Shown: positions 3,854 to 58,567, numbered from the stretch's first letter. The stretch is 64,000 bases of DNA from an uncultured Planctomycetia bacterium (GCA_964597545.1 CAZQXN010000001.1:5655-69654); one strand, 5' to 3'. The notes: generated from the letters alone by a model not told the origin. Made by a program: numbers and translations.

Positions 3854-5472
3854 TGGATAAGCAAGCAGACCAAGAGGATGAAACCAAAGTAGAGGAGGAT
3901 CAGCCGGTAGCGGCTGCCCCAGGCAATGCGCGAAACCGAGGCGCCGGTATCCCACTGCACCCAGGGAGCCCCAGCTTGAGCAAGCCTCGCCAGGGAACAG
4001 AGCGCGGCTACCCCAACGACTGTGATAAAACCGGTCACATTCCACCAAAGCCAGGAGATCTCGGTGAATTGCCAGAGACAAATGTTGACTGCAATTCCGG
4101 CGACCACCCCAAGCTTCACTGCCCCCGCATGGACCCAGCGCGTGGCAACCCCCAACAGAAAGGCCGCCAGGATCGGTCCATACAGCAGGGATCCCACCGC
4201 ATTGATAAGAACGAGGGTGGTTTGCCGGGTCGCTTCACCGATGGCTGCGAATTGCAGGGCTGCCGCAACACAGAAGAGGCCCCACAAACCGGTGCAGAGC
4301 TTGGAAACCTTAATGAGCTCCGCTTCCCCTGCGTGGGGTCTTAAATGCCTCTGATAGAAATCCTTGACCGTCACCGCACTTAAGGAATTTAACGCCGAAT
4401 CAAGGCTCGACATCAGTGCCGCCATGATCGCTACAAAGATCAGCCCGATCACCCCGTGAGGTAAGAATCCCAGGATAAAGAAGGGGAGCATCCGGTCTGG
4501 ATCGCGTCCCAGGGCTTCGGAGACGGCGGCGGTATCCATCTGCAGTGCTGAGGCAATCCTGGGCAGGGTTTCCGGCAAAGTAAAAACTGCTCCCACGAAA
4601 ACACCCACGAGGCAGTAGGCCAACACAACAGGAAAGCGGCCCAAGGCATTCACCATGAGGGATTGGCGGCTCCCATCCAGGGAGGGGACGCTGATCTCCC
4701 GCTGCATCTGGCTCTGATCGCAGCCATAGTAAGAGGCATAGAGAAAGATCCCGCCGATCAACATGGGCCAAAAACCGTACTTGCCCTCTGGGGTAAGGCC
4801 CCACTGGTGAAAATGAAGGATTTGGGCTCGCCCCGGCTCGAAAGCCGCCCAGGCCCCTTCCCAGCCGACAATCGAGAGGGCGGTCGCACCGCAGATCAGG
4901 ACCCCAACAACGATGATCCCCATCTGGAGCACATCGGTCAGGATCACCACCCTTAAGCCTCCTAAAATGTCATAGAGGATGGTGATTGCTCCAACGAGAA
5001 CAATGGCGGTTGCCGTCGGAATGGATAAAACCGTTGAGAGCACCAATCCCCCTGCCAGCACCGCCACCGCAGTGGCCAAACCCCGCCCCAGCAGAAAGAG
5101 GAAGCTCACCAGCGTTCGGGTGGAGCTGTCGAAGCGTTGCTCAAGATAGCTGTAGATGCTGACCCGATTCCTTTGATGCAGAGTAGGCAGCAAAACAGCC
5201 ATCACCAGCAAAAGCCCCAAGGGGACGCCAAACTCATAGCAGAGCCACTTGAGCCCCCCTCCGGGTTTCAGGGCCACAAAGGCAGGGGCCGAGATGAAAC
5301 TGATGGCAGACAGCTGCGTTGCCATCGTGGAAAGCCCGGACTGCCATCCAGGAGTTTGACGGCCGGCCAAATAATAATCTTGAAGGGTGCGCTGGGAAGT
5401 GCTCAGGCGTGCAGCAATCCAGAGGATGACAACGATGTAAAGCAGGAGGGCAGTCCAGTCGAGGAAGTTCAT
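3838..5472 (-). CDS. sodium:solute symporter (SSS family) permease
   Basis: 544 aa polytopic membrane protein with the SSS-family N-terminal pattern (YYLAGR, many TM helices). Located between mpgS and mpgP. Confidence 0.75.
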   Translation of the reverse strand: MNFLDWTALLLYIVVILWIAARLSTSQRTLQDYYLAGRQTPGWQSGLSTMATQLSAISFISAPAFVALKPGGGLKWLCYEFGVPLGLLLVMAVLLPTLHQRNRVSIYSYLEQRFDSSTRTLVSFLFLLGRGLATAVAVLAGGLVLSTVLSIPTATAIVLVGAITILYDILGGLRVVILTDVLQMGIIVVGVLICGATALSIVGWEGAWAAFEPGRAQILHFHQWGLTPEGKYGFWPMLIGGIFLYASYYGCDQSQMQREISVPSLDGSRQSLMVNALGRFPVVLAYCLVGVFVGAVFTLPETLPRIASALQMDTAAVSEALGRDPDRMLPFFILGFLPHGVIGLIFVAIMAALMSSLDSALNSLSAVTVKDFYQRHLRPHAGEAELIKVSKLCTGLWGLFCVAAALQFAAIGEATRQTTLVLINAVGSLLYGPILAAFLLGVATRWVHAGAVKLGVVAGIAVNICLWQFTEISWLWWNVTGFITVVGVAALCSLARLAQAGAPWVQWDTGASVSRIAWGSRYRLILLYFGFILLVCLLIQWTHS

Positions 5473-5499
5473 CCCGGAACCGCCAGAACGACCAGGGGG

Positions 5500-6688
5500 T
5501 TAAACCTTCCCCTCCTTAACCAACCTGGCATAGGGGGTAGGCTCAAGGTCCTTTAAGAACGCATCCAGGTTGATGGAGGACAGCGGCGGATAGCGGCGAG
5601 GCTGTGGGGGTTTTTGTCCGCGCCGCAGGAAGCGGAAGCGGACCATCTCGTCATACACCTCTTCCCGAACACTCTTGGGGCAAGCGGGGGAGTGGTAGAT
5701 CACCTGCATGGCAGCGTAGAGCATGCCGCCAACATGATCGTCATCCCCGGCCTCATGGAGGTGGGGGTTGCGAGATTCAATCTGGCTGACCTGAACCTTG
5801 TGCTTCATCACATCCGGATCCGGCCCCACTGAAAGCCCGCCGAACTTCTCAATGAGATTCATGATGTGATACGGCTCAATGGAGTAGCCTCCGGAGTAAT
5901 CCAAGCGCATGGCCAGATCCGTGGTCATGGCATGCTCGCCGGAGTTTCCGGTCTTGATGATCTCGGTCTCATAGCCGGTGTAGGCGCTGATCAAGCGGTT
6001 GAGGAGGCGGTTGGTGTGGCTGGAGGTCCGCCCCCACTTATGGAAAAAGATCTTGGACTCGGCAATCTTGGGCTTGCTGTTCCAAGAGATTCGAACCTTG
6101 GCATAGGGAGATTTGTTCATGATGAAGCCGGCGGCATACTCCCGGATGTACTCCTCCACCGCTCCCGGAAAGTAGTTGTCGGCATCGACAAAACCGACGT
6201 ACTTCTTGCCGGCAAGCTTGGCCAACAGCATCCCGATCAGCATCCCCTCTCCCTTACCGTCAAAAATCCGCCCCTCTTGATCCAAGATCTTCTGGTAGCC
6301 AACCATCTCAAAGGCCTTGGCCAAGATCGGATCCTTCTGGTGGATGATGAGGGCATGCTTGTTGACGAAGAGGCAGAAGTCCCTGAGGGCATCCTTCTCC
6401 ATGCTGAAGCGGTCTACCGGAGTGCGGGGGCTGTTGGAGACGATGATGATGAGACACGGATGCGGAATTCCGGTTAAGACCCCCTCGACCAGCTTCAAGC
6501 GCTCAGAGCGGACCGGGACCACAATCGCCATCTCCCGCATCACTTCATGGAGGGCTTCGTAGGGAATCTGCTGAATGGCAGAGCCCTTTAAGGGGGTCTG
6601 CTCGCGCCTGAGGCCCGAATCAAGCTCAAGCACCTTCTGGAGCCCTCCGAAGCGGATCGCCCCAAACCGCTCAACCTCTCTGGGAAGT

Positions 6689-6699
<11 letters not shown>
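5500..6699 (-). CDS. mpgS: mannosyl-3-phosphoglycerate synthase (GT55)
   Basis: 399 aa with GFVDADNYFPGAVEEYIREYAAGF and end-to-end similarity to Thermus/Pyrococcus MpgS. Confidence 0.85.
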
Positions 6700-8891
<2,192 letters not shown>

Positions 8892-8934
8892 GTGGGTTTA
8901 CTCATTGTGAGCAGTGATGACAGTTGTGTAATGC

Positions 8935-9264
8935 TTAATCTGTCAATTTCTGAATCTTTTCCTCAAGCTGGTTCTTGGGCTGGACGCCTATGACCCGATC
9001 GACCTCTTCACCGCCCTTGAAGAAGATGAGGGTCGGGATATTCATCACACCAAACTTGGCTGCCAGGTCCGGATCCTCATCCACATTGACTTTGCCGACG
9101 GTGAACTTCCCTTGATAGTTTTGCGCTAATTCATCGAGGACCGGCCCCACCGCTCGACAGGGTGCACACCACTCGGCCCAGAAATCGATGAGTGCAGGGG
9201 TCTTGGACTGAAGGATCTCGGTTTCAAAGTTGGATTGCGTGACGGCAACAGTCGCTGTGCTCAT
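8935..9264 (-). CDS. trxA: thioredoxin
   Basis: WCAPC active site. Start set at ATG 9262-9264, which has an AAGGAG RBS 7 nt upstream. The tracked ORF begins at an upstream GTG. Confidence 0.9.
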   Translation of the reverse strand: MSTATVAVTQSNFETEILQSKTPALIDFWAEWCAPCRAVGPVLDELAQNYQGKFTVGKVNVDEDPDLAAKFGVMNIPTLIFFKGGEEVDRVIGVQPKNQLEEKIQKLTD

Positions 9265-9313
9265 GAAAATCTCCTTTACGGGCACCCGGTATCGCGTACC
9301 CGGTACCGATGGT

Positions 9314-10540
9314 TTATCGAGATGTCAGATGCAGGTGGGTTCTGCCCGTATAGTATAACAGAGCGATCCCAGCCAGGGCAAAGGATCCGCCGACAACCCC
9401 CAAGACCACGGCCTCGCCCCATCGCTCGGCCATGCTACCGCTGGCCAGCATGGCCGCAATCAAACTGGCATTGACTACTACCCCGAGACTGCTGAAGATT
9501 CGGCCGTGGAGCCGCTCGGGGTGTGCCTCGTGAATCAGGGTGTTGGTCACAATGCCGGCAGGGGTGATAAAGAAGCCCAGGAAGGCCACCGCCAAGGAGG
9601 CCAACGCACGAGACTCGAACCCTGCCACAGCTGCGACAAAGAAGAGGAGGGCCGCGCTGCAGCCCACGAAGGTGATCCCTAAAACCAGCTTGTGGGGCCA
9701 ACGTGTGGCCCACCGGCCATAGGCCAGCGCACCGGTCAACATCCCCCACCCCAGCCACAGCCCCAAGAAACCCAGATCCTTGGTCACCGAGCCCAGGGAC
9801 TGCTGTACCAGCACCGTTCCGGCCACAATGCTGGCTCCTGCGCCGGCCATCAGCAGTCCCAAGAGGCCGATGATCCAGCGGGTGGAGTGATGCAGCCACA
9901 ATTCCTGAATCCCCTCAACGATCTGGTGAAAGATCTTCCTGGCGGTTTCGCCTCGCCGTTTGCGGCCGCGGTGCCTCCGCACAATGAGCGCAATAAAGAA
10001 TGCCGAGGTCAGGTAGCCGGCAGCATTGGCCCAACTGGTTCGGGTGGTCCCCACCCACTCCACCAACAGCGCCCCCACTAAGAGAATGAGCGCCGCTCCA
10101 GTCATCCCCGAGGTCGTAAAGAGGGCATTGGCTTTGGCCAACCGGCTCCTGGAGACCAAATCCGGAATCATGGCAAGCCGGGCCGGAACAAAGAAACTTG
10201 AGAGGGCAAAGAGGGTGAAGATCGCCAAGTAAAAAGAGAACTGGTTGGGGGCTTGTGCTAAGAAGGGCAAAGCAAGGATGGTCCCGGCCCGAATCAAATC
10301 GCAGATGATCATGGTGCGCTTGCGGTCCCAGCGGTCCACATAGGCACCGGCAAAAGGGCTGATCAGCAAAGCCGGAAGCGAGGTCAGTGCCAAAACCTTG
10401 GCCAGGCTCATCGTTGAGCCCGAGGCGCGGGCCGCTGCCAGGGCCACCAACAAAAGCTGGGTCAGTCGATCCCCGCACTGGGAGCAGAGTTGTCCGAGCC
10501 AGAGAAGCCGGAAGTTTCTGTTCTTGAGAAGGGCCAGCAC
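9314..10540 (-). CDS. MFS transporter
   Basis: About 12 TM helices with the MFS loop motif. Start proposed at GTG 10538-10540, which has a GGAGG RBS and abuts the upstream gene's stop. Confidence 0.7.
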   Translation of the reverse strand: MLALLKNRNFRLLWLGQLCSQCGDRLTQLLLVALAAARASGSTMSLAKVLALTSLPALLISPFAGAYVDRWDRKRTMIICDLIRAGTILALPFLAQAPNQFSFYLAIFTLFALSSFFVPARLAMIPDLVSRSRLAKANALFTTSGMTGAALILLVGALLVEWVGTTRTSWANAAGYLTSAFFIALIVRRHRGRKRRGETARKIFHQIVEGIQELWLHHSTRWIIGLLGLLMAGAGASIVAGTVLVQQSLGSVTKDLGFLGLWLGWGMLTGALAYGRWATRWPHKLVLGITFVGCSAALLFFVAAVAGFESRALASLAVAFLGFFITPAGIVTNTLIHEAHPERLHGRIFSSLGVVVNASLIAAMLASGSMAERWGEAVVLGVVGGSFALAGIALLYYTGRTHLHLTSR

Positions 10541-13546: not shown

Positions 13547-14952
13547 GTCGCAGCCTCCCGCACAGCAAAGAGACGCTCTCCGTCATCGATTAAGATCGTC
13601 CAGCGCGCCTGAGCTTCGGGTTCCAGCAGATCCCACTCCCGGTGGCCGATAAAGCAGTAGCGGCGCACATAGCGCGTAGCCCCCAGGAATTCGCCATAGT
13701 GCGGCCAGTTGTGGGCGCTGGTGACCCGTGTAATTGCATCGGAATAGATGAGGAGGGAGGCCACATCCTGTCGGACCACAACGACCTGGCCGGGCGCCTG
13801 TCTGACGATCGGATCGATCAGAGGGGCCCAGCGTACGCTCACTTCATAGCGCGCAGGGTGCACCGAGATCGGAGAGAAAGCCAGCCCCACCGCTGCAATG
13901 AAAGCCAAAGCGGTTGTGCCCCAGAACAGGCGCTGCTTCCAAAGGTTAGAGATCCACCGATCGCAGGCCAGCCCCACCCACAAGGCCGTGGCTGCATAGG
14001 TCGGCAGGATATAGTAATGGACCTTGTGGTGTGCCAGAGAGAAACCCAGCGGAAAGGCCACCGCCCATAAGAAGATCAGCAGCCATCTGGGTTCCTCTGC
14101 TCGACGGATCTTCCCCCAAGCCAACCATCCTCCTGCCAGCGCCAACGGCAAGAAATACCAGTATTTATCCAGGATCGCCCAACCGTAGTAATACCAGGGG
14201 GTCAGCGACTCCCTGCGCTGCAGCAGATGGCTAAAGTTCTGCGCATAGTAGTTGTTCCAGAGGGTGTCCTGATAGAAAAGCTGTTCCGCTCCCATCCAGG
14301 CTAACACCGGCAGGATCGCTACCGCCCAAGCCGCTAAGAAGGCCGGTTGAATCAGCTCTCTCCAGTTGCGCCGCAGCACCAGGTAAGCAACCGCTGCCAC
14401 CAGGGGCACCAACCCCACAAACTCCTTGGTCATGATCGCCCCGAAAGAAGCTGCACCGGTCAAGAGGTACCACCGCTTGGAGCCCTTTGCAGCTAAGGCC
14501 AATCCCACAAAGGCCCAAGTGATAAAGGCGATAAGCGGCAAGTCCGGCCGGCACTGGCGCGCAATCTTCATCACATGATCGGTCAGCAGGAAGCCCATCC
14601 CTGAAAACCACCCCACCCAGGGGCCCGCCAGAGTCCTCCCCAGTACAAAGATTCCCCCCACCGCCACTAGGGTCATGACGCTTGAGAAGAGCTTGGCCAC
14701 CGCAGGGGTCACTCCGAACCATTGAAAGAACAGAGCCGTTGGCCAGATCGTCATTGGGAAGTGCCAGTAGTGCGGGGTGTTGGTGACCGGATCAAAGGGA
14801 AGCAGCCACCGGTTGGAGAGGGCAATCTCCCTGGCCACCGCGGCGTAATGGATGCCGTCGACATCCAGAGAGGGGGCGTGGGCCTGAATAAAGACTGCAA
14901 GGTAGGTCACGCCCAGAAGGGCAAAAAGCATGTATTTTTCAGAAAGTTTCAC
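13543..14952 (-). CDS. GT39/GT83-like (PMT_2/ArnT-like) membrane glycosyltransferase
   Basis: 469 aa polytopic protein with the ArnT/PMT-like N-terminal loop architecture. Confidence 0.6.
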   Translation of the reverse strand: MKLSEKYMLFALLGVTYLAVFIQAHAPSLDVDGIHYAAVAREIALSNRWLLPFDPVTNTPHYWHFPMTIWPTALFFQWFGVTPAVAKLFSSVMTLVAVGGIFVLGRTLAGPWVGWFSGMGFLLTDHVMKIARQCRPDLPLIAFITWAFVGLALAAKGSKRWYLLTGAASFGAIMTKEFVGLVPLVAAVAYLVLRRNWRELIQPAFLAAWAVAILPVLAWMGAEQLFYQDTLWNNYYAQNFSHLLQRRESLTPWYYYGWAILDKYWYFLPLALAGGWLAWGKIRRAEEPRWLLIFLWAVAFPLGFSLAHHKVHYYILPTYAATALWVGLACDRWISNLWKQRLFWGTTALAFIAAVGLAFSPISVHPARYEVSVRWAPLIDPIVRQAPGQVVVVRQDVASLLIYSDAITRVTSAHNWPHYGEFLGATRYVRRYCFIGHREWDLLEPEAQARWTILIDDGERLFAVREAAT

Positions 14953-16322
14953 TCGATTCCTTTGAGGCCGGCAACGAGGTTCGAGGCGGTCGCCTTGGCG
15001 TCTCCGAAGAGCATCCGGGCATTGGGGTGATAGAAAAGTGGATTCTCCACACCGGCAAACCCGGTCCTGAGGCTCCGTTTGATGATGATGATATTCTTGG
15101 CCCGGTCCACGTTTAAGATCGGCATTCCATAGAGGGGGCTGGATGGATCGGTACGGGCAGCCGGGTTGATCACATCATTGGCCCCAAGAACCAAGGCCAC
15201 GTCGGTCACGTCAAATTCAGGGTTGATCCGCTCCATCTCGTAGAGCTTGTCGTACGGCACATTGGCCTCAGCCAAGAGTACATTCATGTGGCCCGGCATG
15301 CGCCCGGCCACCGGATGGATAGCATACTTGACCTCCACCCCCTTGGCTTCCAGCATATCGGTCATCTCCTTAATGGCATGCTGGGCTTGAGCCACAGCCA
15401 TCCCATAACCCGGAACCACTACAACCATCTTGGAGTAGGCCATCAACACCGCCACATCCTCTGCGGTGACCTCCCGAACGGTTCGTTCCCCTTCTCCAGC
15501 ACCGGCGGCCACCTCCCCGCCTTTGACTCCGACGGCCCCGAAGAGTACATTCGCGAGGGAGCGGTTCATCGCCTCGCACATGATGCGTGTCAAGATCAGG
15601 CCCGAAGCCCCCACGAGGGACCCTGCAATGATCAGCATCTGGTTGTACAACACAAAACCGGTACAGGCGGCAGCCACACCCGAGAGGGAGTTCAGGAGCG
15701 CGATCACAACCGGCATATCTGCCCCGCCGATTGGAATCACAATTAAGACCCCCCAGACCAGAGCAAGGCCCAGAAGGGGATAGAACAGATAAGCACTGGC
15801 TGGATTCATCACGACAGCCACCGACAACCCCAGCAAAGCAATCAAGAGTGCGATGTTGAATAGATTCTGCCCGGGATAGGTGATGGGGCGGCCGGTCATG
15901 AGCTCCTGCAGTTTGGCAAAGGCGATGAGGCTTCCGGTTAAGGTGGCACCTCCTACTGCGATACTGGCCATGATGGCAATCATCACATCCAGGGATTTGG
16001 CGATGGGGCGCAGGTGCTCTGCCCAGGCCACCAGCATCGAGGCCCCACCCCCCAACCCGTTTAAGAGGGCTACCATCTGCGGCATTGCAGTCATCTTGAT
16101 GAGCCGAGCTGCCGCCACGCCTATAAGAGAGCCAACAATCAACCCTGCGATGATCATCGAGAAGTCGACGATCTGCCGATCGAGGAGGGTAACGACAATG
16201 GCCAGCAGCATGCCGACCGCCCCCATGAGATTGCCCCGGCGGGCAGTCGCAGGAGAGGAGAGCTGCTTGAGCCCCAAGATAAAGAGGCTGGCCGCAACGA
16301 GGTAAAGGAGGGTAGTAATCAT
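14949..16322 (-). CDS. pntB: NAD(P) transhydrogenase subunit beta
   Basis: Membrane domain plus the C-terminal NADP(H)-binding dIII (VVVPGYGMAVAQAQHA...HPVAGRMPGHMNVLLAEA). Confidence 0.9.
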   Translation of the reverse strand: MITTLLYLVAASLFILGLKQLSSPATARRGNLMGAVGMLLAIVVTLLDRQIVDFSMIIAGLIVGSLIGVAAARLIKMTAMPQMVALLNGLGGGASMLVAWAEHLRPIAKSLDVMIAIMASIAVGGATLTGSLIAFAKLQELMTGRPITYPGQNLFNIALLIALLGLSVAVVMNPASAYLFYPLLGLALVWGVLIVIPIGGADMPVVIALLNSLSGVAAACTGFVLYNQMLIIAGSLVGASGLILTRIMCEAMNRSLANVLFGAVGVKGGEVAAGAGEGERTVREVTAEDVAVLMAYSKMVVVVPGYGMAVAQAQHAIKEMTDMLEAKGVEVKYAIHPVAGRMPGHMNVLLAEANVPYDKLYEMERINPEFDVTDVALVLGANDVINPAARTDPSSPLYGMPILNVDRAKNIIIIKRSLRTGFAGVENPLFYHPNARMLFGDAKATASNLVAGLKGIE

Positions 16323-16600
16323 TTCTTTTTCTTGAACATCTGAAGCATGCGATCGGTGACCAAGAAACCGCCCACCACATTCACCATGGCCAGCGCCACC
16401 GCGATCACCCCCAGCAGACCCGCGAGTCCAGCATCTGCACGGCCGGCTGCCAAGAGGGCTCCAACGATGGTGATGCCGGAGATGGCATTCGACCCTGACA
16501 TCAGCGGCGTGTGCAGAATGGCCGGAACCTTGGTGATGACCTCAAAACCGATAAATACAGCCAAGACAAAAACAGTGACCGCGGTCAGGAAGGGTTCCAT
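16319..16600 (-). CDS. pntAB: NAD(P) transhydrogenase subunit alpha part 2 (membrane)
   Basis: Start at MEPFLTAV, followed by three TM helices typical of PntA-II. Start overlaps the pntAA stop. Confidence 0.8.
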   Translation of the reverse strand: MEPFLTAVTVFVLAVFIGFEVITKVPAILHTPLMSGSNAISGITIVGALLAAGRADAGLAGLLGVIAVALAMVNVVGGFLVTDRMLQMFKKKK

Positions 16601-17718
16601 CAGATGCGCTTCTCCCCTTGGTGCGCGACACAAGTTTCACCGATGACCTGATCTTCAAAATTGAGATTGAGCTTGCCTTCCTTGAGTAGGACCTCCAAAA
16701 AGGCAGTGATGTTCTTGGAATACATTTGGCTGGAATGAAAGGCAAGCGCGCTCGGCAGATTCAAGGGCCCCAAGATCTGAATCTGTCCGGGCAGGGTTAC
16801 GGTTTGGCCGGCCTGAGTCAGCTCACAATTGCCTCCCTGCTCGGCCGCCAGATCAACAATCACAGAACCGGGTTTCATCGCTTCTGCCATCTGACGGGTA
16901 ATCAGCCGGGGAGCCGGTTTGCCTGGAATAAGGGCCGTCGTAATCACCACATCAGCCTTTTGCAGCCGCTCGGCAATCAAGGCCTGCTCCTTGCGGTGAC
17001 TCTCCTCAGAGAGCTCCTTGGCATATCCCCCTTTGCCCTCAGCCCCCTCCAAGGTCAAACCCACAAAGGAGGCGCCGAGACTCTCCACCTGTTCTTTGAC
17101 GGCCGGTCGAACATCAAAGGCCTCAACCCGAGCACCCAAGCGCCGAGCTGTGGCAATGGCTTGAAGTCCGGCGACACCGGCGCCCAGCACAAAGACCTTG
17201 GCGGGCGTGACGGTACCAGCCGCTGTCATCAGGAGGGGGAAAAACTTAGGGGAAGCCTGTGCAGCCAAGATGGCTGCCAGGTATCCAGCCGCAGTGCTTT
17301 GTGAGCTTAAGGCATCCATCTTCTGCGCCCTGGAGATCCTGGGGACTCGCTCCATGGCAAAGGCTGTGACCTTGCGGGTAAGCAGCTTCTGAAGAAGGGG
17401 TGAGTTGGAATCTGCAAAAAGGAAGGATATGATCGCAGCACCCTCCCGGAGGAGATCGGCCTCGTGCCCTACCCCCTGACGCTCTGCCGGCCCTTGGACC
17501 TTAAGCAGCAGGTCGGCGGCCTTAAAGAGCGCAGAAGCATCGGTGGCAATCTCAACACCGGCCTTGCGGTACTCCTCATCCGGGAAACCGGCTGCCTCTC
17601 CAGCCCCTGCTTCCAGTGCCACGCGCACACCGGTCTTAACGAGTCCGGCTGCCAACTCTGGCACCAAGGCCACCCGGCGCTCACCCGGAACTGCCTCTTT
17701 GGATATCGCGATTTGCAT
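16600..17718 (-). CDS. pntAA: NAD(P) transhydrogenase subunit alpha part 1 (dI, AlaDH-like)
   Basis: Alanine-dehydrogenase/PNT N- and C-domains with the Rossmann motif VFVLGAGVAGLQAIATA. Confidence 0.9.
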   Translation of the reverse strand: MQIAISKEAVPGERRVALVPELAAGLVKTGVRVALEAGAGEAAGFPDEEYRKAGVEIATDASALFKAADLLLKVQGPAERQGVGHEADLLREGAAIISFLFADSNSPLLQKLLTRKVTAFAMERVPRISRAQKMDALSSQSTAAGYLAAILAAQASPKFFPLLMTAAGTVTPAKVFVLGAGVAGLQAIATARRLGARVEAFDVRPAVKEQVESLGASFVGLTLEGAEGKGGYAKELSEESHRKEQALIAERLQKADVVITTALIPGKPAPRLITRQMAEAMKPGSVIVDLAAEQGGNCELTQAGQTVTLPGQIQILGPLNLPSALAFHSSQMYSKNITAFLEVLLKEGKLNLNFEDQVIGETCVAHQGEKRI

Positions 17719-17863
17719 GAGACACTATGATAACCTGTCTTTGGGCAATGGGGTAAGCTGAAATTAGAGGCCAGCTCATCACCGACTGTAGGGGCCTCGT
17801 ATTGCGAGGCCCCCGCCCCTGGCGGGGGACGAAGCAATCTGACTCGAAGAAGAGGCATCTAGC

Positions 17864-18436
17864 ATGTTTGAGACCCTCAAGGCTGACTACAACCGCTATT
17901 ACAAGCTCCTGCCAGCCAGCTATGGCCGATGGCAGCGCTTTATCTTCTTTCTAACCTGCCCAGGGATGTGGGCTCTGCTGGATTATCGCTACAGGAAGTG
18001 GGCACCCTTTCGGCCCCGCTGGTTTAGGCTCATCATGATGTGGCCCATGTTCTTTTTTCACATTTGGCTGAGCGTCTTCACCGGAATTGAGATTAAAACC
18101 GGGGCCAAGATCGGCAGGGGGCTCTACATCGGCCACTTCACTGGAATCTTTATCCATTCGGATGTTGTCATGGGGGAAAACTGCTCCATCTCTCAAGGGG
18201 TGACCATCGGCTTAGGCGGCAAGGATAAAACCTACGGCGTCCCCACGGTGGGAAAGAACGTCTATTTTGGAGCGGGGGCCAAGGTGCTGGGTAAGTTCAC
18301 CATCGGTGACGGTGCTGCAGTTGGCGCCAATGCCGTGGTCTTGACCTCAGTCCCTGCGGGGGCCACCGCGGTCGGGGTGCCGGCCCGCATCATTACCGTT
18401 GAAGAGAAAGCTGCAAAGAAACGTAAGGGCACCTGA
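17864..18436 (+). CDS. hexapeptide-repeat acyltransferase (serine O-acetyltransferase-like)
   Basis: Left-handed beta-helix repeats (IGRGLYIGHFTGIFIHSDVVMGENCSISQGVTIG). Confidence 0.65.
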   Translation: MFETLKADYNRYYKLLPASYGRWQRFIFFLTCPGMWALLDYRYRKWAPFRPRWFRLIMMWPMFFFHIWLSVFTGIEIKTGAKIGRGLYIGHFTGIFIHSDVVMGENCSISQGVTIGLGGKDKTYGVPTVGKNVYFGAGAKVLGKFTIGDGAAVGANAVVLTSVPAGATAVGVPARIITVEEKAAKKRKGT

Positions 18437-46703: not shown

Positions 46704-46741
46704 GGGCGTTTTGGCTCGTTTTGCTAGCACCCCGTTAGCAC
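46704..46741. repeat. GGGCGTTTTGGCTCGTTTTGCTAGCACCCCGTTAGCAC motif copy 1 (tandem TAGCAC half-sites)
   Basis: Near-identical to sequences at 48032-48069 and 58398-58422, which lie inside the ends of the integrated element. Confidence 0.6.
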
Positions 46742-46782
46742 AGGCCAGCATCCTTACTGAATAACCAGGGGGTACTCCATTT

Positions 46783-47889: not shown

Positions 47890-47931
47890 AGCCGGCGACA
47901 GGAGTCGAACCTGCGACCCGCGCATTACGAA
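47890..47931 (-). pseudogene. 3' fragment of a tRNA-Thr(CGU) gene (anticodon loop to 3' end), displaced by the insertion
   Basis: Revcomp UUCGUAAUGCGCGGGUCGCAGGUUCGACUCCUGUCGCCGGCU. Pairs perfectly with the 5' half at 58519-58567. Confidence 0.7.
47914..47931. repeat. 18-bp direct repeat CGACCCGCGCATTACGAA (left att core)
   Basis: Identical copy at 58519-58536. Confidence 0.8.
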
Positions 47932-48031: not shown

Positions 48032-48069
48032 GGGTGTTTTGGCTTGTTTTGTTAGCACCCTGTTAGCAC
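48032..48069. repeat. GGGTGTTTTGGCTTGTTTTGTTAGCACCCTGTTAGCAC motif copy 2 (tandem TGTTAGCAC), ~100 bp inside the left element end
   Basis: Direct-orientation copy of the motif at 58398-58422. Candidate integrase arm-type site. Confidence 0.6.
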
Positions 48070-48076
48070 GGGAAGA

Positions 48077-49026: not shown

Positions 49027-49100
49027 AAGCCGCCGAGAGGAATCGAACCTCCGACCCGTCGCTTACGAAGCGACTGCTCTACCAAACTGAGCTACGGCGG
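49027..49100 (-). tRNA. tRNA-Thr(CGU), intact, element-borne
   Basis: GCCGCCGUAGCUCAGUUUGGUAGAGCAGUCGCUUCGUAAGCGACGGGUCGGAGGUUCGAUUCCUCUCGGCGGCU forms a perfect 74-nt cloverleaf. Sequence differs from the split host copy in the anticodon and T stems. Lies 11 bp downstream of int. Confidence 0.8.
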
Positions 49101-49111
49101 CGTAAGGCTGA

Positions 49112-50320
49112 TTATAGCGCGTGAGGGACAGCTAGAGCCAGATTAGGATCCGATGCGCTTTCTGACTGGAATAATTGCGCATCTAATTTCTCCCCTGCCC
49201 CAGCTTGTGCTTCCGGAAGGAGATGTCCATATCTGTCTAGCGTTGTTTGAATAGAGGCGTGGCCAAGCTGGCTCTGGATAAACTTGGCGTGAAACCCTTG
49301 AGCAATAAGAAGGGCAGCATAGGTATGCCTGAGATCATGAAAACGAATCTTCCGAAGCCCGGCGCCGTCCAGAGCTGGCTCAAACTCTCGCCGAATCAGA
49401 TTTCGGTATTGGATAGGGGTTCCTTTGGGGGTACAAAAAACAAGCTCGTGTGGGCTTACGGGACACCGAAGGCGGTGAAGTTCGAGTGCCTCTCTCAACT
49501 TGGGGGACATAACAATGGACCTTTTAGAGCGTTTGGATTTGGGAGAGGTAAACCGCCAAAGCTCGGATCCTTCTTGGCCAAACTCCTCAGCTTCCCGTTT
49601 CCGATACCAGAAAATACTGCGTTGGACATAGATCCGATTGGCGTTCCAGGCAATATCTCCCCACTGTAACGCCTGTAGCTCTCCCACCCGCATCCCAGTA
49701 AGCACCCCTGACAAAAACAGGGTTCTATAAGGTTCATCAGAGTGTCTCAGCAATAAGCGGATCTCGTCGGGCGAAAGATAGGCCATTTCTTTCTGCTCAA
49801 CCCTGGCATGTTTAATATCCTGGGCGGGATTCTCCCGTAGATACCCCCATTGCTTGGCACACTTCAAGATATGCTTCAGAAGAACCAGTGTTTTGTTAAT
49901 TGTTGCAGGAGCGTTTGGCTTTTCTCTGATCGATTTTGCCATGTACGCCTGAATCTGATCCGGAGCGATGTCCACCAGGCGTTGCGAGCCAAAGACGGGA
50001 TCCAAATGCCACCTGACGATGCCTCGGTATGCCCTGTAGGTAAGGGGCTTAACCCGGGCAGAAACGTAGTCCTTGAGCCATCTCCGTGCGAAGTCGTCGA
50101 AGGTGATGTGCCGGATTGACCGGTAGGAGCCGGAATGAACCTGAGCCATGATCTCGGCCAGTCGTCTTTCAGCAGTTTTCTTGCTTCGCCCAACCGCCTC
50201 CCACTTCTGACGTTTACCGACTCGGTAGGTAATGGAGTAGCCAGCCCGCGGGTGCTTGCAAGATCCCGAGGATTTGTTGCCACACTTGCGACACCGCCAG
50301 ATGATACTTCCCTGTGCCAT
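49112..50320 (-). CDS. int: tyrosine-type site-specific integrase
   Basis: C-terminal catalytic R...HDLRHTYA...LGHASIQTTLDRYGHL (R-H-R-Y). N-terminal arm-binding/SAM-like region. Confidence 0.9.
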   Translation of the reverse strand: MAQGSIIWRCRKCGNKSSGSCKHPRAGYSITYRVGKRQKWEAVGRSKKTAERRLAEIMAQVHSGSYRSIRHITFDDFARRWLKDYVSARVKPLTYRAYRGIVRWHLDPVFGSQRLVDIAPDQIQAYMAKSIREKPNAPATINKTLVLLKHILKCAKQWGYLRENPAQDIKHARVEQKEMAYLSPDEIRLLLRHSDEPYRTLFLSGVLTGMRVGELQALQWGDIAWNANRIYVQRSIFWYRKREAEEFGQEGSELWRFTSPKSKRSKRSIVMSPKLREALELHRLRCPVSPHELVFCTPKGTPIQYRNLIRREFEPALDGAGLRKIRFHDLRHTYAALLIAQGFHAKFIQSQLGHASIQTTLDRYGHLLPEAQAGAGEKLDAQLFQSESASDPNLALAVPHAL

Positions 50321-53071: not shown

Positions 53072-53377
53072 CTATTCGATCTTTTCGTCGTCTGGGTGCG
53101 GACCGTCTATCAAAAGGTCATTTAGCTTTTCTCCGCCATATTTGCGAACCCACTTGTGCCACTGCAGACTTGCCCTTTTATGTCCCTTCGAGAGACCAAC
53201 AAACCACGCGGCGAGCCCAGCCGCGATCATTCCAAGAAACTTGTCGCTGGCTCCGTCCCCTGCCAATTCGAGACAAACACCGAATCCGATCACTGCGAGA
53301 ATAACCAACCCCCATTTGAAGATCGTGACCCACTCACGGGTTTTTTCTTCTATTTCGCTGGATCGGTGCTTTCCCAT
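53072..53377 (-). CDS. small membrane protein (hypothetical)
   Basis: Two predicted TM helices. Confidence 0.35.
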   Translation of the reverse strand: MGKHRSSEIEEKTREWVTIFKWGLVILAVIGFGVCLELAGDGASDKFLGMIAAGLAAWFVGLSKGHKRASLQWHKWVRKYGGEKLNDLLIDGPHPDDEKIE

Positions 53378-53625
53378 CTTCCGAACGAAACCACCTTTCC
53401 GTCTTTCAGTTCAACGTAGTAGGGGGTCGAAAAACTCCCGCCTTCATAGAGATCGTAATTCATGTATTCCGTCTCATCTTGCAGACCCCTCCCGGCCGGC
53501 GGACCGAGGATCTCAACCGCCTGCGTTCTCGTCATCCCGATTTCAAGCTGATGTGTCAAGCGGGCAGACCTAGCGCACCCAACAATGAAGATTGCGACAG
53601 CCAATATGTAAGCAACTCTGCCCAT
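53350..53625 (-). CDS. putative lipoprotein (hypothetical)
   Basis: Start at MGRVAYILAVAIFIVGCA, a signal peptide with a lipobox-like VGC. Confidence 0.4.
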   Translation of the reverse strand: MGRVAYILAVAIFIVGCARSARLTHQLEIGMTRTQAVEILGPPAGRGLQDETEYMNYDLYEGGSFSTPYYVELKDGKVVSFGRWESTDPAK

Positions 53626-53727
53626 TTTCTCTTCTCTGCCTGTGCACCCCGCATAGCCACCCCACGCTAGCCCTGCATCTGGGGACATATATTAACACGG
53701 TGTCGTGGTACCGTGGTGCCTTAAACC

Positions 53728-53967: not shown

Positions 53968-54058
53968 TCGGCGCGACCCTCTTGTTCAACTCAAAACAAA
54001 GGCGGAGAGCTGTCGGCTCCCCACCTTGGAGATTCAACGTGTTTTTCGTGGTCTTCAC

Positions 54059-55690
54059 CTAAAGCTTAGCATCAGGTGGAGGTTCCAATCGAGGCAATGC
54101 TTGCCTGATCACTTCTTCGCCAACTACCTTGACGCATTCATCCCGCCCCAGGAGGTCAAGAAGCCGTTGAATCGCCCAGTCCCGCAGTTCCTGATTATCC
54201 CCTTCCAGATGCGTGCGGAAACCGTTTACATCATCCTCGATTTCTCTTAGGACCTCTTTGCGAACAACCTCACGGTACTTCTCTGCCAACCGCGTCAACC
54301 ATGCTCGTGCGCGCGGAGGCGTCGAAGGATCGTTGACAACTTGGAGGATGTCTTGTCGGCATCTTCCGAGGTGTACTGAATGCTCTCCTTTAATCATTGA
54401 CCCGACGTGCTCAATCCCCGAACTCAGATATGCTAGGACATCTTCGTTCTCCGGATAACGCTCAAGGAGATGTACAGCGATGGGCCAAAATCCGGGTCGC
54501 GCTGCAGTCAAACTCCTAGAGATAATCTCTGCCATTTTCTCGTCTTGATCAGAAAATTCCATCAAGAGTCCACCATCCTCGACCTGATCTAGAATCTCTT
54601 GGAGATCCCAGCTGAGCCGAAAGCTCAGCGCATCAGTATCGAGACAAAGTCGGAATAACATGGTCAGAGCTTTTCGGCGATCTGCCCGAATTAATGCTTC
54701 CCAGGCGCTCCGTTGCTGAAACTGGTCGACAGGATTCCAGCACTCCTCCTTGTGGTCGGTTCTGAGGAGATCTTCTGTCAATTTAAGCCCCCTGACTGGA
54801 TCTTGCGCAAAGAGCTTCGCCGCAAGCTCATCATAATGCCAAGCATCTCCGTGCCTAGCAATGGGACGCTTGGCTTCCAGGGCCCTCCAGCAGAGCTCCG
54901 CCAGACCACCCGTCAAAGATCGTCCCAAGTGCCTCCACATTCCAACCATGTCAATGGCTGCCGCCACACCGCTGAAATCTGGACGTGCTATCGCTGTTAC
55001 CAAAACACAAAATTCTTCATCGCTCAAGGGTTCCATCCACCGACCACCCATCAGAGCTCCCCTGACATGATCCGGTGTGACTTGCCCTGCATCCAGTAAT
55101 TCCGTGGCACGCTCAACAGATCGCCGATCTGCAGGAAGGTAGCTAGTTGCCCATAGCACCGCGTAAGGATGAAGCACCCCCTGACCATAGAGCGAATCGA
55201 TCAAATCGACGATCTTCGGATCGTGTATTTTCTGCCCTGAGCAATAACTGGCGAATGCGTAGGCCCCCGTATCTGTGCGTCCAAGTTCCTGCATTTTGGC
55301 CAACCACTTCTTCCCAGTATCATGTTGTCCAAGTTGGGAAAAAAATTCCATCGCCTTCTGGGCTTCTGGACCGCACAGCCACTCAATGGTCCCCTTATCC
55401 AACTTCGCAGGATTAGCTACGGCCTCCTGGGCCAATTGACCCAATTCTTGCTGGTAGCGGTATCGCCTGCCCCTCCCCGGCTCCTCGCCATCATCCTCAA
55501 GCAGCCATTGCCCAGCCCATCGCCTAACTCGGGTCGAAAATGAGCTCTCTCCCAACAGCTGTATCAGTTGATTCAAATCCGCTACGTATTTTTCAAGTTT
55601 TTGACGGTTCACTCTCTCGCACCCCTTCCTTGAATAACCGATCGCGGAATACATCACGAGCAAGACGGATCGCTCGCGTAACCTCAGCAA
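54059..55690 (-). CDS. hypothetical alpha-helical (HEAT/ARM-like?) protein, partner of the upstream STAND NTPase
   Basis: 543 aa with no known catalytic motifs. Same strand, and overlaps the 3' end of the 909-aa gene. A GTG at 55610-55612 would leave only a 20-bp overlap. Confidence 0.5.
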   Translation of the reverse strand: MLRLRERSVLLVMYSAIGYSRKGCERVNRQKLEKYVADLNQLIQLLGESSFSTRVRRWAGQWLLEDDGEEPGRGRRYRYQQELGQLAQEAVANPAKLDKGTIEWLCGPEAQKAMEFFSQLGQHDTGKKWLAKMQELGRTDTGAYAFASYCSGQKIHDPKIVDLIDSLYGQGVLHPYAVLWATSYLPADRRSVERATELLDAGQVTPDHVRGALMGGRWMEPLSDEEFCVLVTAIARPDFSGVAAAIDMVGMWRHLGRSLTGGLAELCWRALEAKRPIARHGDAWHYDELAAKLFAQDPVRGLKLTEDLLRTDHKEECWNPVDQFQQRSAWEALIRADRRKALTMLFRLCLDTDALSFRLSWDLQEILDQVEDGGLLMEFSDQDEKMAEIISRSLTAARPGFWPIAVHLLERYPENEDVLAYLSSGIEHVGSMIKGEHSVHLGRCRQDILQVVNDPSTPPRARAWLTRLAEKYREVVRKEVLREIEDDVNGFRTHLEGDNQELRDWAIQRLLDLLGRDECVKVVGEEVIRQALPRLEPPPDAKL

Positions 55691-58322
55691 CCTCGAATCG
55701 CCCAGGACATTCCGTCACCTCCCGAACAAGCGCTCGGAGGAGTTCGATCCCCTCATCGGGACGGGCTTGAATCGTATACTCAGCAAGCACCATGGGCAGC
55801 TCATGGCGAGCCTTCTTGCTCACCTGGACATCCTCATCGTTTGACAAATTTAGCATGAGCCTAACCACACCATCCAGATAACGCCACATGTCTCCCCAGG
55901 TCATCGAGGGGCAAGTGTCCAAAGGTTCATATGATTCACTTCGCCTAAGGAAATATGAACCCATCCGATCAAACGCCCCGCTAGCTGCCTTGACCACTAA
56001 AAAACGCTGCATCAGCGGATACGATGGCTTACAAAGCTCCTGCAAGATAGCCAGTCGGTCATCGAGCAACAACGGCACCTGCGGATGTAGCGGATGGAAA
56101 GCTGGACAGAAGAGGCTGTTCGTACTGCTCAACCTGGTATTTTCATCGGGCTGCGCGAAAATACAAGAGAGACGTAGCGCTTCTGCCGAAGTTCGCCTCC
56201 TGAGAAGCAGTTGGTTGATAATCGAGACAAACTCCTGTCGAGGGCCATCTTCTATCTTTTCAACTTGGTCTGTCGAAAGCGGCTCTACGTGTTGCTTCAA
56301 AACGGCGAGGACCCGCTCTGGAACAGCACCTGCGATCAGGCGAAGTACCCGTACACTCCTCAAAAGCGCAGGCAGACTACTAAACAAACCGCGGCTACCA
56401 AACAATTCGTCCCAGAACGGCCCAATCTCCTCACTTTTCAACGTATTGAGGCGGCGCAGGAGCCGCGTTTGAGCAGGCGATTGGAGCCGCACAAAGAGTG
56501 CCAGTAGCGCTTCGGGTTTTTGACAAAACAGCCGCGTGCATAGGCGAGATGCCAAGATGGGCAGTGATACCTCTACAAAAACGCCATTAACCTTCAGGAA
56601 CCCAGCTTGTTGAAGTTTACCAACCGAATCCAAGACTTGGCCCACATCCAGATCGGGCGCAAAGAACTCACGGATGATTTTAGTTTCAGCCACAAACGAC
56701 CCTGCCACACCCACTTGGGACAGTGCCGAAAAGAGCTGTAGAACACGCAAGCGCTGTTCACCCAACTGCTTTCGGACTTGACCTTCGAATCGAACACCTA
56801 CCTTTTCGACAAGTCCACCTACCTCCCGTGTAGTAATATCCGTCTCAGCGGCAGCAAGAAGAACGCTGGGGTTTCCTCCTGCTTGCTCAACAATCCACGT
56901 CATCAACCCATAGTCAAATCGTTTGCCCGCTGCCTTCAGGAATTCCTCAGACTGCTGGAGACTCAGAGGCTCTAGCTTATGGACAAAGATGCGTTGATCG
57001 GTTCCGAACGCGGGGAGGAGTGCGTCTGAAGCCGTGGGGAGCGTGATAATGACCTTCACGTGTGACCGCGACAGAGCTTCATCAATGAACGGCCTGACGT
57101 CCTCCTCCGCTGAATCTTCAACCACAACTATGACATAAGGGCCATCTCCCTCAAATTTTTCAAGATTCCCAGGTCTAACAGACTGAGGATCATCAACAAC
57201 AATCGTTCTCAAGAGTTGGCTCCTGGTTGCTTCAAGGACGATCCGAGATTTACCGATTCCTGGAGACCCAGCAAGAACGATGGCTTTCACGGAGGAATTT
57301 TCGATAGCCCCCTTCAATTTCGCCAAGTCCCCCTCTCGCCCTATAAGAGGGATCGTTTGCCATGGTTTGGCCCTCTCGTGCTTCTCGGCAAATCGATGCC
57401 ATGAAAGACACTTTGATAAGGAGAAGAACGAGGAGCGCAAGTACGGAATGCTGTTAAGCATCGGTGCCAACTCAGCCGAACCGATCACGGCAACTTTCAC
57501 TTTCACGCTTTCAGGCTCCCCATACCCTTCCCTCACAGCTTCTTCAAGCCGTTTCTTATTCTTCGAATCGACATTGAAGTTAACGAAGAGGACATAGTTC
57601 TGAGGTTGAACACCTGTACGCTGTTGAATCTGCACCAAGGCCTTGCGGACCTTACTGCGAACGTCATTTATGACGTCACTCGGCTTTCGGCTGGAACAGT
57701 TTCGCACCTTGTACTGAAAAACGTTCAGGCCCTCTGTCAGCAGAAGCGTACTTGGCACCGCTCCATGTTCGATGTTGCGCTCCCAGGAAGCATCGATTCC
57801 GTCATCCGAAGCATTCACGTTCTCTGTAAAGTCGGGAGGAAAATTGGCCTGGCTACGAGCAGAAGCCCACGCCAGGGAGTTACACAATCGAGCAAAGTGT
57901 CTGGCAGACCATCTGCTGGTTTGGGACTGAATGTGGTCTCCGGAAATTGCGTCCCCTAGGGCAAGGTCCCTGATGATCAACCCGGTGGCTAGGTCGCTGT
58001 GCTTCCAATAAAGCGGCTTGGATACATGATAAAGAGGATGGCTGACATCCAAGGCATACTGCTTCTCTAAACCCTGCACAGATGAGACGACGAGACCATC
58101 GTCCTCCAGCTCGACAAGGGTCCTGGAAAGGTTGCCTGGATCGATCCCTAGCGCCCTTGCAAGACCACGAACAGAGCATTTCTGAGACGGGGTTGTGTGA
58201 AGATACTCCAGAGCGCGAGCACTCAGCCCTTTGACTGCTGGGTGTATCAGCTTTTTTCTATGTTGTCTTCTAGGCATCGGCATGTTGTATATTTTACAAC
58301 ACATTGCTAGTCTGTCAAGCAA
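55593..58322 (-). CDS. wHTH + PD-(D/E)xK/Mrr-like nuclease + STAND/AAA P-loop NTPase + C-terminal helical repeats (Avs-like candidate antiviral protein)
   Basis: Winged helix GLARALGIDPGNLSRTLVELEDDGLVV. Nuclease-like DDGIDA...FQYK. Walker A LAGSPGIGKS and Walker B YVIVVVEDSAEE. About 450 aa of C-terminal helical repeats. Start is ambiguous (TTG or ATG at M7/M14/M16). Confidence 0.65.
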   Translation of the reverse strand: MLDRLAMCCKIYNMPMPRRQHRKKLIHPAVKGLSARALEYLHTTPSQKCSVRGLARALGIDPGNLSRTLVELEDDGLVVSSVQGLEKQYALDVSHPLYHVSKPLYWKHSDLATGLIIRDLALGDAISGDHIQSQTSRWSARHFARLCNSLAWASARSQANFPPDFTENVNASDDGIDASWERNIEHGAVPSTLLLTEGLNVFQYKVRNCSSRKPSDVINDVRSKVRKALVQIQQRTGVQPQNYVLFVNFNVDSKNKKRLEEAVREGYGEPESVKVKVAVIGSAELAPMLNSIPYLRSSFFSLSKCLSWHRFAEKHERAKPWQTIPLIGREGDLAKLKGAIENSSVKAIVLAGSPGIGKSRIVLEATRSQLLRTIVVDDPQSVRPGNLEKFEGDGPYVIVVVEDSAEEDVRPFIDEALSRSHVKVIITLPTASDALLPAFGTDQRIFVHKLEPLSLQQSEEFLKAAGKRFDYGLMTWIVEQAGGNPSVLLAAAETDITTREVGGLVEKVGVRFEGQVRKQLGEQRLRVLQLFSALSQVGVAGSFVAETKIIREFFAPDLDVGQVLDSVGKLQQAGFLKVNGVFVEVSLPILASRLCTRLFCQKPEALLALFVRLQSPAQTRLLRRLNTLKSEEIGPFWDELFGSRGLFSSLPALLRSVRVLRLIAGAVPERVLAVLKQHVEPLSTDQVEKIEDGPRQEFVSIINQLLLRRRTSAEALRLSCIFAQPDENTRLSSTNSLFCPAFHPLHPQVPLLLDDRLAILQELCKPSYPLMQRFLVVKAASGAFDRMGSYFLRRSESYEPLDTCPSMTWGDMWRYLDGVVRLMLNLSNDEDVQVSKKARHELPMVLAEYTIQARPDEGIELLRALVREVTECPGRFEVAEVTRAIRLARDVFRDRLFKEGVRESEPSKT
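58283..58301. promoter_or_regulatory. inverted repeat TGTTGTA-tattt-TACAACA overlapping the start region of the 909-aa gene
   Basis: Perfect 7-bp arms. Candidate (auto)operator. Confidence 0.3.
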
Positions 58323-58397: not shown

Positions 58398-58422
58398 GGT
58401 TTTGTTAGCACCATGTTAGCAC
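58398..58422. repeat. GGGTTTTGTTAGCACCATGTTAGCAC motif copy 3, ~100 bp inside the right element end
   Basis: Same tandem TGTTAGCAC arrangement and same orientation as copy 2. Confidence 0.6.
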
Positions 58423-58518
58423 GACACCAAAAAGGCCCCGAGGCATCAGCCAAGGGACCTTCACAACCTGTTGCAATACTTCAAGAAAGAATGACGCCGC
58501 TACTCAAAAATCCCTCGC

Positions 58519-58567
58519 CGACCCGCGCATTACGAATGCGCTGCTCTACCAACTGAGCTACGCCGGC
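58519..58567 (-). pseudogene. 5' fragment of tRNA-Thr(CGU) (acceptor stem through variable loop), includes right att core 58519-58536
   Basis: Revcomp GCCGGCGUAGCUCAGUUGGUAGAGCAGCGCAUUCGUAAUGCGCGGGUCG. The sequence that follows is not tRNA-like. Confidence 0.7.

Follow-up and report, generated by a model that had tools for sequence, protein, structure and literature searches.

The 64,000-nucleotide stretch analysed here (the window) is recorded as coming from an uncultured Planctomycetia bacterium, and a gene for a STAND-type immune receptor is predicted at its positions 54059-58322 on the minus strand. Two overlapping open reading frames (ORFs) were found at this locus, as described in an earlier note on the same DNA. 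ORF1 (55593-58322) encodes 909 residues and ORF2 (54059-55690) encodes 543 residues, with a mutual overlap of 98 nt. The earlier note regarded them as a two-gene system with a separate helical partner. Read together with its relatives, however, the sequence of 54059-58322 is that of one gene for a protein of about 1400 residues, split by one extra A, and ORF2 is the distal half of the sensor of the same gene, cut off by the frameshift. The parts of this gene and its terminator, numbered in residues of ORF1 unless otherwise said, are as follows.

58050-58241 (-): MarR-like winged helix-turn-helix (wHTH), residues 28-91, with the recognition helix DPGNLSRTL
57423-57941 (-): Mrr-like PD-(D/E)xK nuclease domain, residues 128-300, with D173/D177 at 57789-57806 and Q203-x-K205 at 57708-57719
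56823-57350 (-): STAND P-loop nucleoside triphosphatase (NTPase) domain, residues 325-500, with Walker A at 57246-57269 and Walker B at 57114-57137
56523-56822 (-): helical and winged-helix domains of the STAND module, residues 501-600, from AlphaFold2 helices (501-572), a hairpin (576-585) and STAND fold matches
55603-56522 (-): proximal half of the helical sensor, residues 601-907, from the family alignment, AlphaFold2 and profile comparison
55598-55602 (-): run of five A's with the +1 frame break; the ORF1 stop codon TGA (55595-55593) lies 3 nt downstream
54059-55597 (-): distal half of the sensor, formerly the '543-aa partner', with homology from ORF2 residue 29 onward
53999-54027 (-): intrinsic-terminator-like hairpin of 12 pairs with a T tract, directly 3' of the ORF2 stop codon

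On the coding strand, the sequence at the junction is TCA AAA ACT TGA. Deleting one A from the run gives a single frame of 1420 codons ('...SEPSKLEKYVADLNQL...') which is collinear with the relatives, as observed at residues 873-880 of P0002 and in P0191. In P0002 (1396 aa), residues 12-873 align with ORF1 while residues 880-1367 align with ORF2 (35% identity, E 2e-104, BLASTP), and ORF2 also matches residues 807-1246 of P0013 (E 1e-70, BLASTP). ORF2 is the homologue of the C-terminal 490 residues of what is a single protein in the relatives. A search of 5.8 billion proteins returned 66 relatives besides the product of the window itself, with identities of 31-37%, and nearly all of them are 1250-1410 aa long. 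The other wHTH-bearing members (P0002, P0003, P0191 of locus L091, and P0201) are all intact single ORFs. The promoter upstream of ORF1, described below, and the terminator directly after ORF2 indicate a single-gene transcription unit. The description of ORF2 as a helical protein devoid of known motifs holds in that ORF2 alone had no match in Pfam, NCBIfam or PADLOC, but its homologous counterpart in the relatives is their C-terminal half. No significant match was obtained when the chains of the PDB were searched by sequence with ORF1, ORF2 or the family profile.

The domain order is wHTH, Mrr-type PD-(D/E)xK nuclease, P-loop NTPase, helical and winged-helix domains, and a helical sensor of about 800 residues. 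The wHTH is matched by Pfam MarR_2 at residues 32-79 (E 6e-8, above the gathering score) and by PADLOC PDC-M05A (E 2.5e-7). The nuclease motifs are DDGIDA (residues 173-178) and FQYK (residues 202-205), and the domain has the alpha-beta-beta-beta-alpha-beta core of PD-(D/E)xK nucleases in which strands 2 and 3 carry the acidic and lysine residues; it is an N-terminal nuclease of the Mrr family with the D...(E/Q)xK signature of Avs8 (PD-λ-4A). Walker A (GSPGIGKS) and Walker B (YVIVVVED) occupy residues 352-359 and 396-403 respectively, where G352, G357 and K358 are invariant across the family alignment. In an alignment of 60 family members, both the nuclease and the Walker motifs fall in invariant or near-invariant columns. 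The Pfam models AAA_16, ATPase_2 and nSTAND gave sub-threshold matches only, such as the AAA_16 P-loop match at residues 325-372 (E 1.9e-5, below the gathering score). The sensor carries a region conserved in the family as 'AENE..NNATG.F', which has diverged in the window protein (PDENTRLSSTNSLF).

AlphaFold2 models were built with the family alignment. The predicted local distance difference test score (pLDDT) exceeds 90 in the wHTH region and is 81.5 for residues 100-330 and 87.3 for the whole of ORF1, with a predicted template modelling score of 0.78. When the ORF1 model was compared by Foldseek, as had been proposed earlier, the top matches were Avs5 (1.8e-8), SAMD9, Apaf-1, SSO1545 (template modelling score 0.55), NLRP9 and NLRC4. 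The protein therefore has the STAND architecture of a Walker A/B NTPase followed by helical, winged-helix and repeat-sensor domains. Thus the earlier dissection of ORF1 into a MarR-like winged helix, a PD-(D/E)xK/Mrr-like segment, a STAND P-loop NTPase and a helical remainder was borne out by the motifs, the Pfam match and the model, and its effector-NTPase-sensor layout was correctly likened to the Avs proteins, given the STAND folds and the homology to the Avs8 family considered next.

Relation to the Avs8 branch

The earlier note proposed a novel defence system. This part of the proposal does not stand, as the family was found to be an end-to-end homologue of the PD-λ-4A/Avs8A clade, whose mechanism is published. 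PD-λ-4A has been renamed Avs8A and combines an Mrr nuclease with a STAND NTPase (PMC12236752; PMC13581612). Avs8A binds the HK97-fold major capsid protein with a dissociation constant of 14-127 nM and then degrades double-stranded DNA, and its neighbour Avs8B is dispensable for this defence (PMC12236752).

The link was traced through intermediates. The sole distant match of the first search, P0067, matches PADLOC PD-Lambda-4_A with E 1.5e-32 and led to the full-length proteins of the clade. Three proteins form a bridge: P0177, P0182 and P0185 cover positions 3-1279 of the 1283 in that model (E 1e-74 to 1e-85), and relatives of the window protein are collinear with the model over profile positions of about 420-1030 (P0029, 1.2e-23; P0013, 3e-20). 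A profile of 18 proteins that match PD-Lambda-4_A along its full length was used to stand in for E. coli Avs8A. Comparison of this profile with that of the window family by hhalign gave a probability of 100% (E 1.6e-101, 1180 columns), where template positions 8-1241 of 1244 are covered, from the nuclease to three positions short of the C-terminus. The profile homology to full-length PD-Lambda-4_A proteins is therefore end to end. Both groups share the motifs DGGxDA...QxK, GxGK(S/T)RLxLE and AENE..NNATG.F. On these comparisons, the window gene is a remote member of the characterised Avs8 (PD-λ-4A) branch rather than a new system.

The window protein resembles Avs8A (E. coli ECOR07 WP_000963924.1; PADLOC PDLC03991) in its Mrr-type nuclease (DGGxD...QxK), its STAND NTPase and its long helical sensor, and both are sited on mobile DNA or in defence islands. 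Avs8A also acts as a single-protein system, Avs8B being dispensable (PMC12236752). The two differ in that the window gene adds an N-terminal wHTH with a matching operator and has no Avs8B gene. The hosts differ too, being Gammaproteobacteria for Avs8A and environmental phyla for the window family. The capsid-protein ligand is known for Avs8A; for the window family, a ligand of this class would be a plausible starting assumption, by analogy only. Avs4 (EcAvs4/SeAvs4, PDB 8dgf), which senses the portal protein, has a sensor unlike that of the window protein. The PADLOC scan suggested in the earlier note was fruitful in part, giving the PDC-M05A match and a weak PD-Lambda-4_A match, but no PADLOC model for Avs1-5 was matched by the window protein or its relatives.

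The family is widespread. When 1.84 billion cluster representatives were searched exhaustively with HMMER, 554 relatives came up (182 at E <= 1e-30); in scanned contig collections, metagenomes gave 381 and species genomes 35. Among their hosts are Nitrospira, Deltaproteobacteria, Planctomycetota, Acidobacteria, Cyanobacteria and Verrucomicrobia. Some relatives have a defence context: a DpnII restriction-modification system adjoins P0002 and AbiEii follows P0045. P0051 is surrounded by transposases and giant genes that have no assignment. In this last locus (L007, Rubrobacter tropicus CP045119.1), P0051 is flanked by giant genes at 5231-9622 and 14222-18310 (1463 and 1362 aa), which had no Pfam match, and a 2054-aa HTH/double-PIN protein is also found nearby. 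This region is a possible defence island whose large genes are unexplored. We also noticed that in P0254, P0265 and P0314 the alignment to the window protein begins only at about residue 305, with 320-430 different residues in front, which suggests that effector domains are swapped within the family.

The winged helix and its candidate operator

The start of the gene was found to be arranged around a palindrome, for which the features are listed below.

58313-58318 (-): -35 hexamer TTGACA, from a promoter scan; the same position is used in L001, L010, L091 and L087
58291-58296 (-): -10 hexamer TAAAAT, from the same scan, inside the palindrome
58283-58301 (-): candidate operator, the perfect inverted repeat TGTTGTA-aaata-TACAACA, covering the -10 box and the predicted transcription start
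58281-58283 (-): probable start codon ATG, residue 14 of the mechanical ORF, placed by its position relative to the -10 box

The promoter TTGACA-N16-TAAAAT has 11 of 12 matches to sigma-70. The core pattern of the palindrome occurs once in the 64 kb of the window, where 0.01 occurrences would be expected by chance. The earlier note placed this repeat at the translation start; the repeat is real, but it overlaps the -10 box and the predicted transcription start and not just the translation start. The TTG codon at which the mechanical ORF begins (58322) lies shortly before the -35 box. Translation therefore probably starts at the ATG of 58283-58281, or at the next ATG. P0002 and P0003 begin near the point that matches residue 25 of the window protein. 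The transcript may be leaderless or nearly so.

A wHTH start was observed in two of the 150 top representatives and in P0002, P0003 and the window protein, so that five such members are known here. The wHTH-fused proteins of L001, L010 and L091 are 32-35% identical to the window protein and their genes have the same promoter-palindrome layout. In L001, TGTTGTAatatTGACAAC lies over the -10 box and a perfect GTTGTA-atcta-TACAAC follows just downstream. In L010, GTTGTAagattAACAAC lies over the -10 box, and in L091 TGTA-N5-TACA lies over TATAAT and is repeated 25 nt downstream. Across all fetched loci, the TGTA-N5-TACA core was found within 220 nt upstream of 9 of the 12 wHTH-bearing genes and of none of the 84 wHTH-less relatives.

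The same layout is found outside the family. The wHTH of the window protein is 46% identical to that of a wHTH-MNT antitoxin (E 7e-18), and the recognition helix, DPGNLSR(E/T)L, is nearly identical. In these HEPN-MNT modules, the wHTH fronts nucleotidyltransferases of about 185 aa and a HEPN gene follows. Their promoters carry the same palindrome within the -10 box. Such modules were located at L080 (2927-4007) and L087 (561-1637) and also in L081, L082 and L084-L086, and a second TGTA-N5-TACA site is often present downstream in the promoters of these loci. They probably correspond to the PADLOC candidates PDC-M05 and PDC-M05A. The antitoxins (PDC-M05A) and the window gene are alike in the wHTH and in a promoter of the form TTGACA-N16/17 whose -10 box lies within (GT)TGTA-N5-TACA(AC), a further site often following downstream. 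They differ in what the wHTH is fused to, which is a nucleotidyltransferase of about 100 aa with a HEPN gene after it in the antitoxins and a 1300-aa nuclease-STAND receptor in the window gene.

A wHTH and a conserved palindrome, the candidate operator, over its own promoter, which together mark a wHTH autorepressor, are both present in the sequence. Most likely, the wHTH binds the palindrome of its own promoter and represses its own gene, although the evidence is comparative and does not amount to proof. The suggestion of autoregulation in the earlier note gains support from the 9/12 against 0/84 distribution and the shared promoter layout. The sharing with HEPN-MNT antitoxins suggests that promoter, operator and wHTH moved as one cassette. 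The wHTH domains at the N-terminus of bacterial NLR-like/NACHT proteins were listed previously as possible effectors, and we found no published description of a promoter-operator-wHTH cassette on an Avs. What is new here is the wHTH-operator module fused in front of an Avs8-like receptor.

The frameshift and competing readings of the locus

Taken together, we read the locus as one frameshifted gene for a divergent receptor of the Avs8 branch with a self-repressing wHTH, carried on an integrase element at tRNA-Thr(CGT), and we put the probability of this joint reading at roughly three in four. Several observations weigh against it. Because of the frameshift, production of the full-length receptor is doubtful. 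For this sub-family, the wHTH is a predicted DNA binder, and nuclease activity and phage protection are likewise predicted from sequence. The promoter was scored as sigma-70-like under a promoter logic that is assumed for Omnitrophota. The match of the window protein to PADLOC PD-Lambda-4_A is weak (E 0.0055 for ORF1 and 0.013 for the repaired 1420 aa) and spans residues 655-785 only instead of the full length; the Avs8 link thus rests on family and profile comparison at about 10% identity, and ligand specificity may differ. An Avs8B-like gene is absent and with it the two-gene Avs8B operon, as the receptor gene is followed by the terminator and then by small membrane or lipoprotein-like ORFs that are not Avs8B. 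This absence says little since Avs8B is dispensable for defence (PMC12236752). Lastly, among the 60 members it is the window protein that shows the most departures from family-conserved residues, at 26 of 113 columns. The deviating residues lie within residues 118-797 and include E179S, W199L, D208N and G486S. The departures could have arisen as the wHTH sub-clade diverged, or under relaxed selection once the frame was broken. E179S and D208N were also considered as a loss of the nuclease active site, and hence as evidence of inactivation, but this was rejected, since the Avs8A clade does not conserve position 179 and D173, D177, Q203 and K205 are intact.

As sequenced, the gene is a receptor lacking its distal sensor together with an orphan C-terminal fragment, and it is possibly inactivated in this genome. 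The sequence cannot decide between a real inactivating mutation and a base-calling error. The latter, in which a sequencing or assembly error in the homopolymer hides a gene that is intact in the organism and encodes a working 1407-aa wHTH-Avs8-like receptor, is a serious possibility to which we give less than even odds. The break falls exactly within the run of five A's, collinearity of the frame with every relative is regained by correcting one base, and the source, a contig of 208,633 bp, resembles part of a metagenome-assembled genome. The 514 codons downstream of the break are free of stop codons, so any real mutation must be recent. Five A's are, however, a short run for a systematic error. 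Elsewhere in the window, the five most-overlapping adjacent gene pairs are distinct and complete genes and long ORFs cover 95% of the sequence, which indicates that the assembly is not generally frameshift-prone. The NCBI annotation likewise carries a 903-aa product, and the above-average divergence of the window protein at conserved sites also speaks for a real change.

It is unlikely that the split is functional, with ORF1 and ORF2 made as two polypeptides that reassemble into a two-chain receptor, a reading that comes near the two-component idea of the earlier note. Such a reading would have ORF2 restart at GTG 55612, its codon 27, which lies two codons ahead of the homology to the relatives and is in frame 9 nt downstream of a Shine-Dalgarno-like purine tract (AAGGAAGGGG). 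ORF2 is stop-free, and the linker between helices in which the frame breaks is poorly conserved. The purine tract is, however, ordinary coding sequence (K-E-G). Furthermore, no split homologue was found among the four other wHTH-fused and about 60 wHTH-less members, all of which are single ORFs. P0008 (861 aa) and P0012 (843 aa) were tried as independent natural splits and rejected, as both genes reach contig ends and are short solely for that reason. There is a small chance that the ORF2 fragment is translated on its own. Separately, we noticed contig ends at 8586 in L004 and at 8532 in L005/L006 that lie within about 100 nt of the point matching the frameshift, at the start of the distal sensor; these are two unrelated metagenomic contigs, and the ends may reflect assembly breaks from strain-level variation in the sensor.

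A non-immune role as a STAND transcription factor like MalT, AfsR or GutR, in which the wHTH regulates other genes upon ligand binding, appears very improbable. An N-terminal DNA-binding domain followed by a STAND NTPase and a helical sensor is the usual layout of STAND regulators, and wHTH domains are listed as possible 'effectors' of bacterial NACHT proteins. The MalT, AfsR and GutR types are cited as non-immune STAND clades (PMC13581612); these and the NACHT proteins with DNA-binding N-termini likewise hold a DNA-binding domain and a STAND NTPase in one polypeptide. In the regulators, however, the HTH is the output domain, whereas the window protein has a nuclease between the wHTH and the NTPase. 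Nearly all family members are without a wHTH, yet all retain the nuclease domain with D...QxK, and a validated defence protein shows homology to the family from end to end. The sole candidate operator found, one palindrome in 64 kb, is at the promoter of the gene itself, and relatives adjoin restriction-modification and Abi genes.

The least probable reading is a programmed +1 ribosomal frameshift or transcriptional slippage at the A run that sets the ratio of short to full-length receptor, and it was rejected because no relative is frameshifted at the corresponding position: the A-AAA-A run would permit re-pairing of tRNA-Lys in the +1 frame with a zero-frame stop two codons on, but the site has no stimulatory element, rare codon or stop codon, and its five A's are too few, as efficient transcriptional slippage needs more.

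The integrative element and the proposed working

Returning to the joint reading of one frameshifted Avs8-branch gene, its setting is an element of 10.6 kb that carries a tyrosine integrase, splits the host tRNA-Thr(CGT) and holds the receptor gene at its far end. This confirms both ORFs as cargo of an integrative element, as noted earlier. Judged by the neighbours of its AtpD, the host probably belongs to Candidatus Omnitrophota. Its features are as follows.

58519-58536 (-): right-hand attachment (att) core TTCGTAATGCGCGGGTCG, inside the 5' portion of the interrupted host tRNA-Thr(CGT), 58567-58519
47914-47931 (-): left-hand att core with the same 18 bp, next to the 3' portion of the interrupted tRNA, 47913 to about 47888
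49112-50320 (-): tyrosine integrase, Pfam Phage_integrase E 3.6e-25 and Phage_int_SAM_3 E 2e-13
49028-49101 (-): intact element-borne tRNA-Thr(CGT), from ARAGORN, Rfam tRNA 67.4 bits

The G+C content falls from about 0.58 to 0.45-0.54 between about 47 and 58.5 kb. The tyrosine recombinase, the insertion into a tRNA gene and the perfect 18-bp direct repeat at both junctions are those of a tRNA-targeting integrative element. Put together, the two split halves form a tRNA whose acceptor stem is perfect, the break lying within the anticodon-arm/variable region. Unusually for an element of this type, it does not rebuild the target tRNA and carries a copy of its own. No convincing rebuilt tRNA was found at either junction, where the right one (58492-58567) scored 30.5 bits with Rfam and gave no call with ARAGORN. 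The intact tRNA-Thr(CGT) beside the integrase is possibly a replacement copy. A 25-nt repeat, CGTGCTAACAnGGTGCTAACAAAAC, was observed at 48046-48070 and 58399-58423, 100-140 bp inside each end of the element, and a third copy with 88% identity lies outside it (46718-46742). These repeats could be arm-type sites of the integrase or the scar of an earlier element. The other cargo includes several ORFs that have no family match. Two small overlapping ORFs lie at 53072-53688 (-), downstream of the receptor gene and past its terminator; one (112 aa) is lipoprotein-like with a weak BamE match and the other (101 aa) resembles a membrane protein.

The proposed working of the receptor is drawn by analogy with the characterised Avs8A and Avs3/4. 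The sensor would wrap around a conserved phage protein. Since its homology to the Avs8A sensor extends over the full length, the major capsid protein is the foremost candidate. ATP-dependent oligomerisation would then bring the nuclease domains together, DNA would be degraded and the infection would abort. Antiviral STAND receptors are toxic when over-produced, and to our knowledge little is known on how their level is set. The wHTH, bound to the palindrome around the -10 box, would keep this potentially toxic receptor at a low and self-limited level. A more speculative extension, which we regard as doubtful, is a feedback device in which the resting receptor sits on its own -10 box until capture of a phage protein and oligomerisation pull the wHTH off and transcription surges, with promoter, operator and wHTH being a portable cassette exchanged between antitoxins of toxin-antitoxin modules and innate-immune receptors. 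If this were true, the surge would come exactly when more receptor is needed.

For annotation, the locus is a caution that a seeming two-gene system can be a single gene broken at a homopolymer. For the family, the analysis indicates that the Avs8 (PD-λ-4A) lineage reaches beyond the Gammaproteobacteria into Omnitrophota, Nitrospirota, Cyanobacteria, Planctomycetota and other phyla. In addition, the gene offers a concrete and testable case of an immune receptor that would repress its own gene, and of regulatory cassettes that appear to move between toxin-antitoxin and defence genes.

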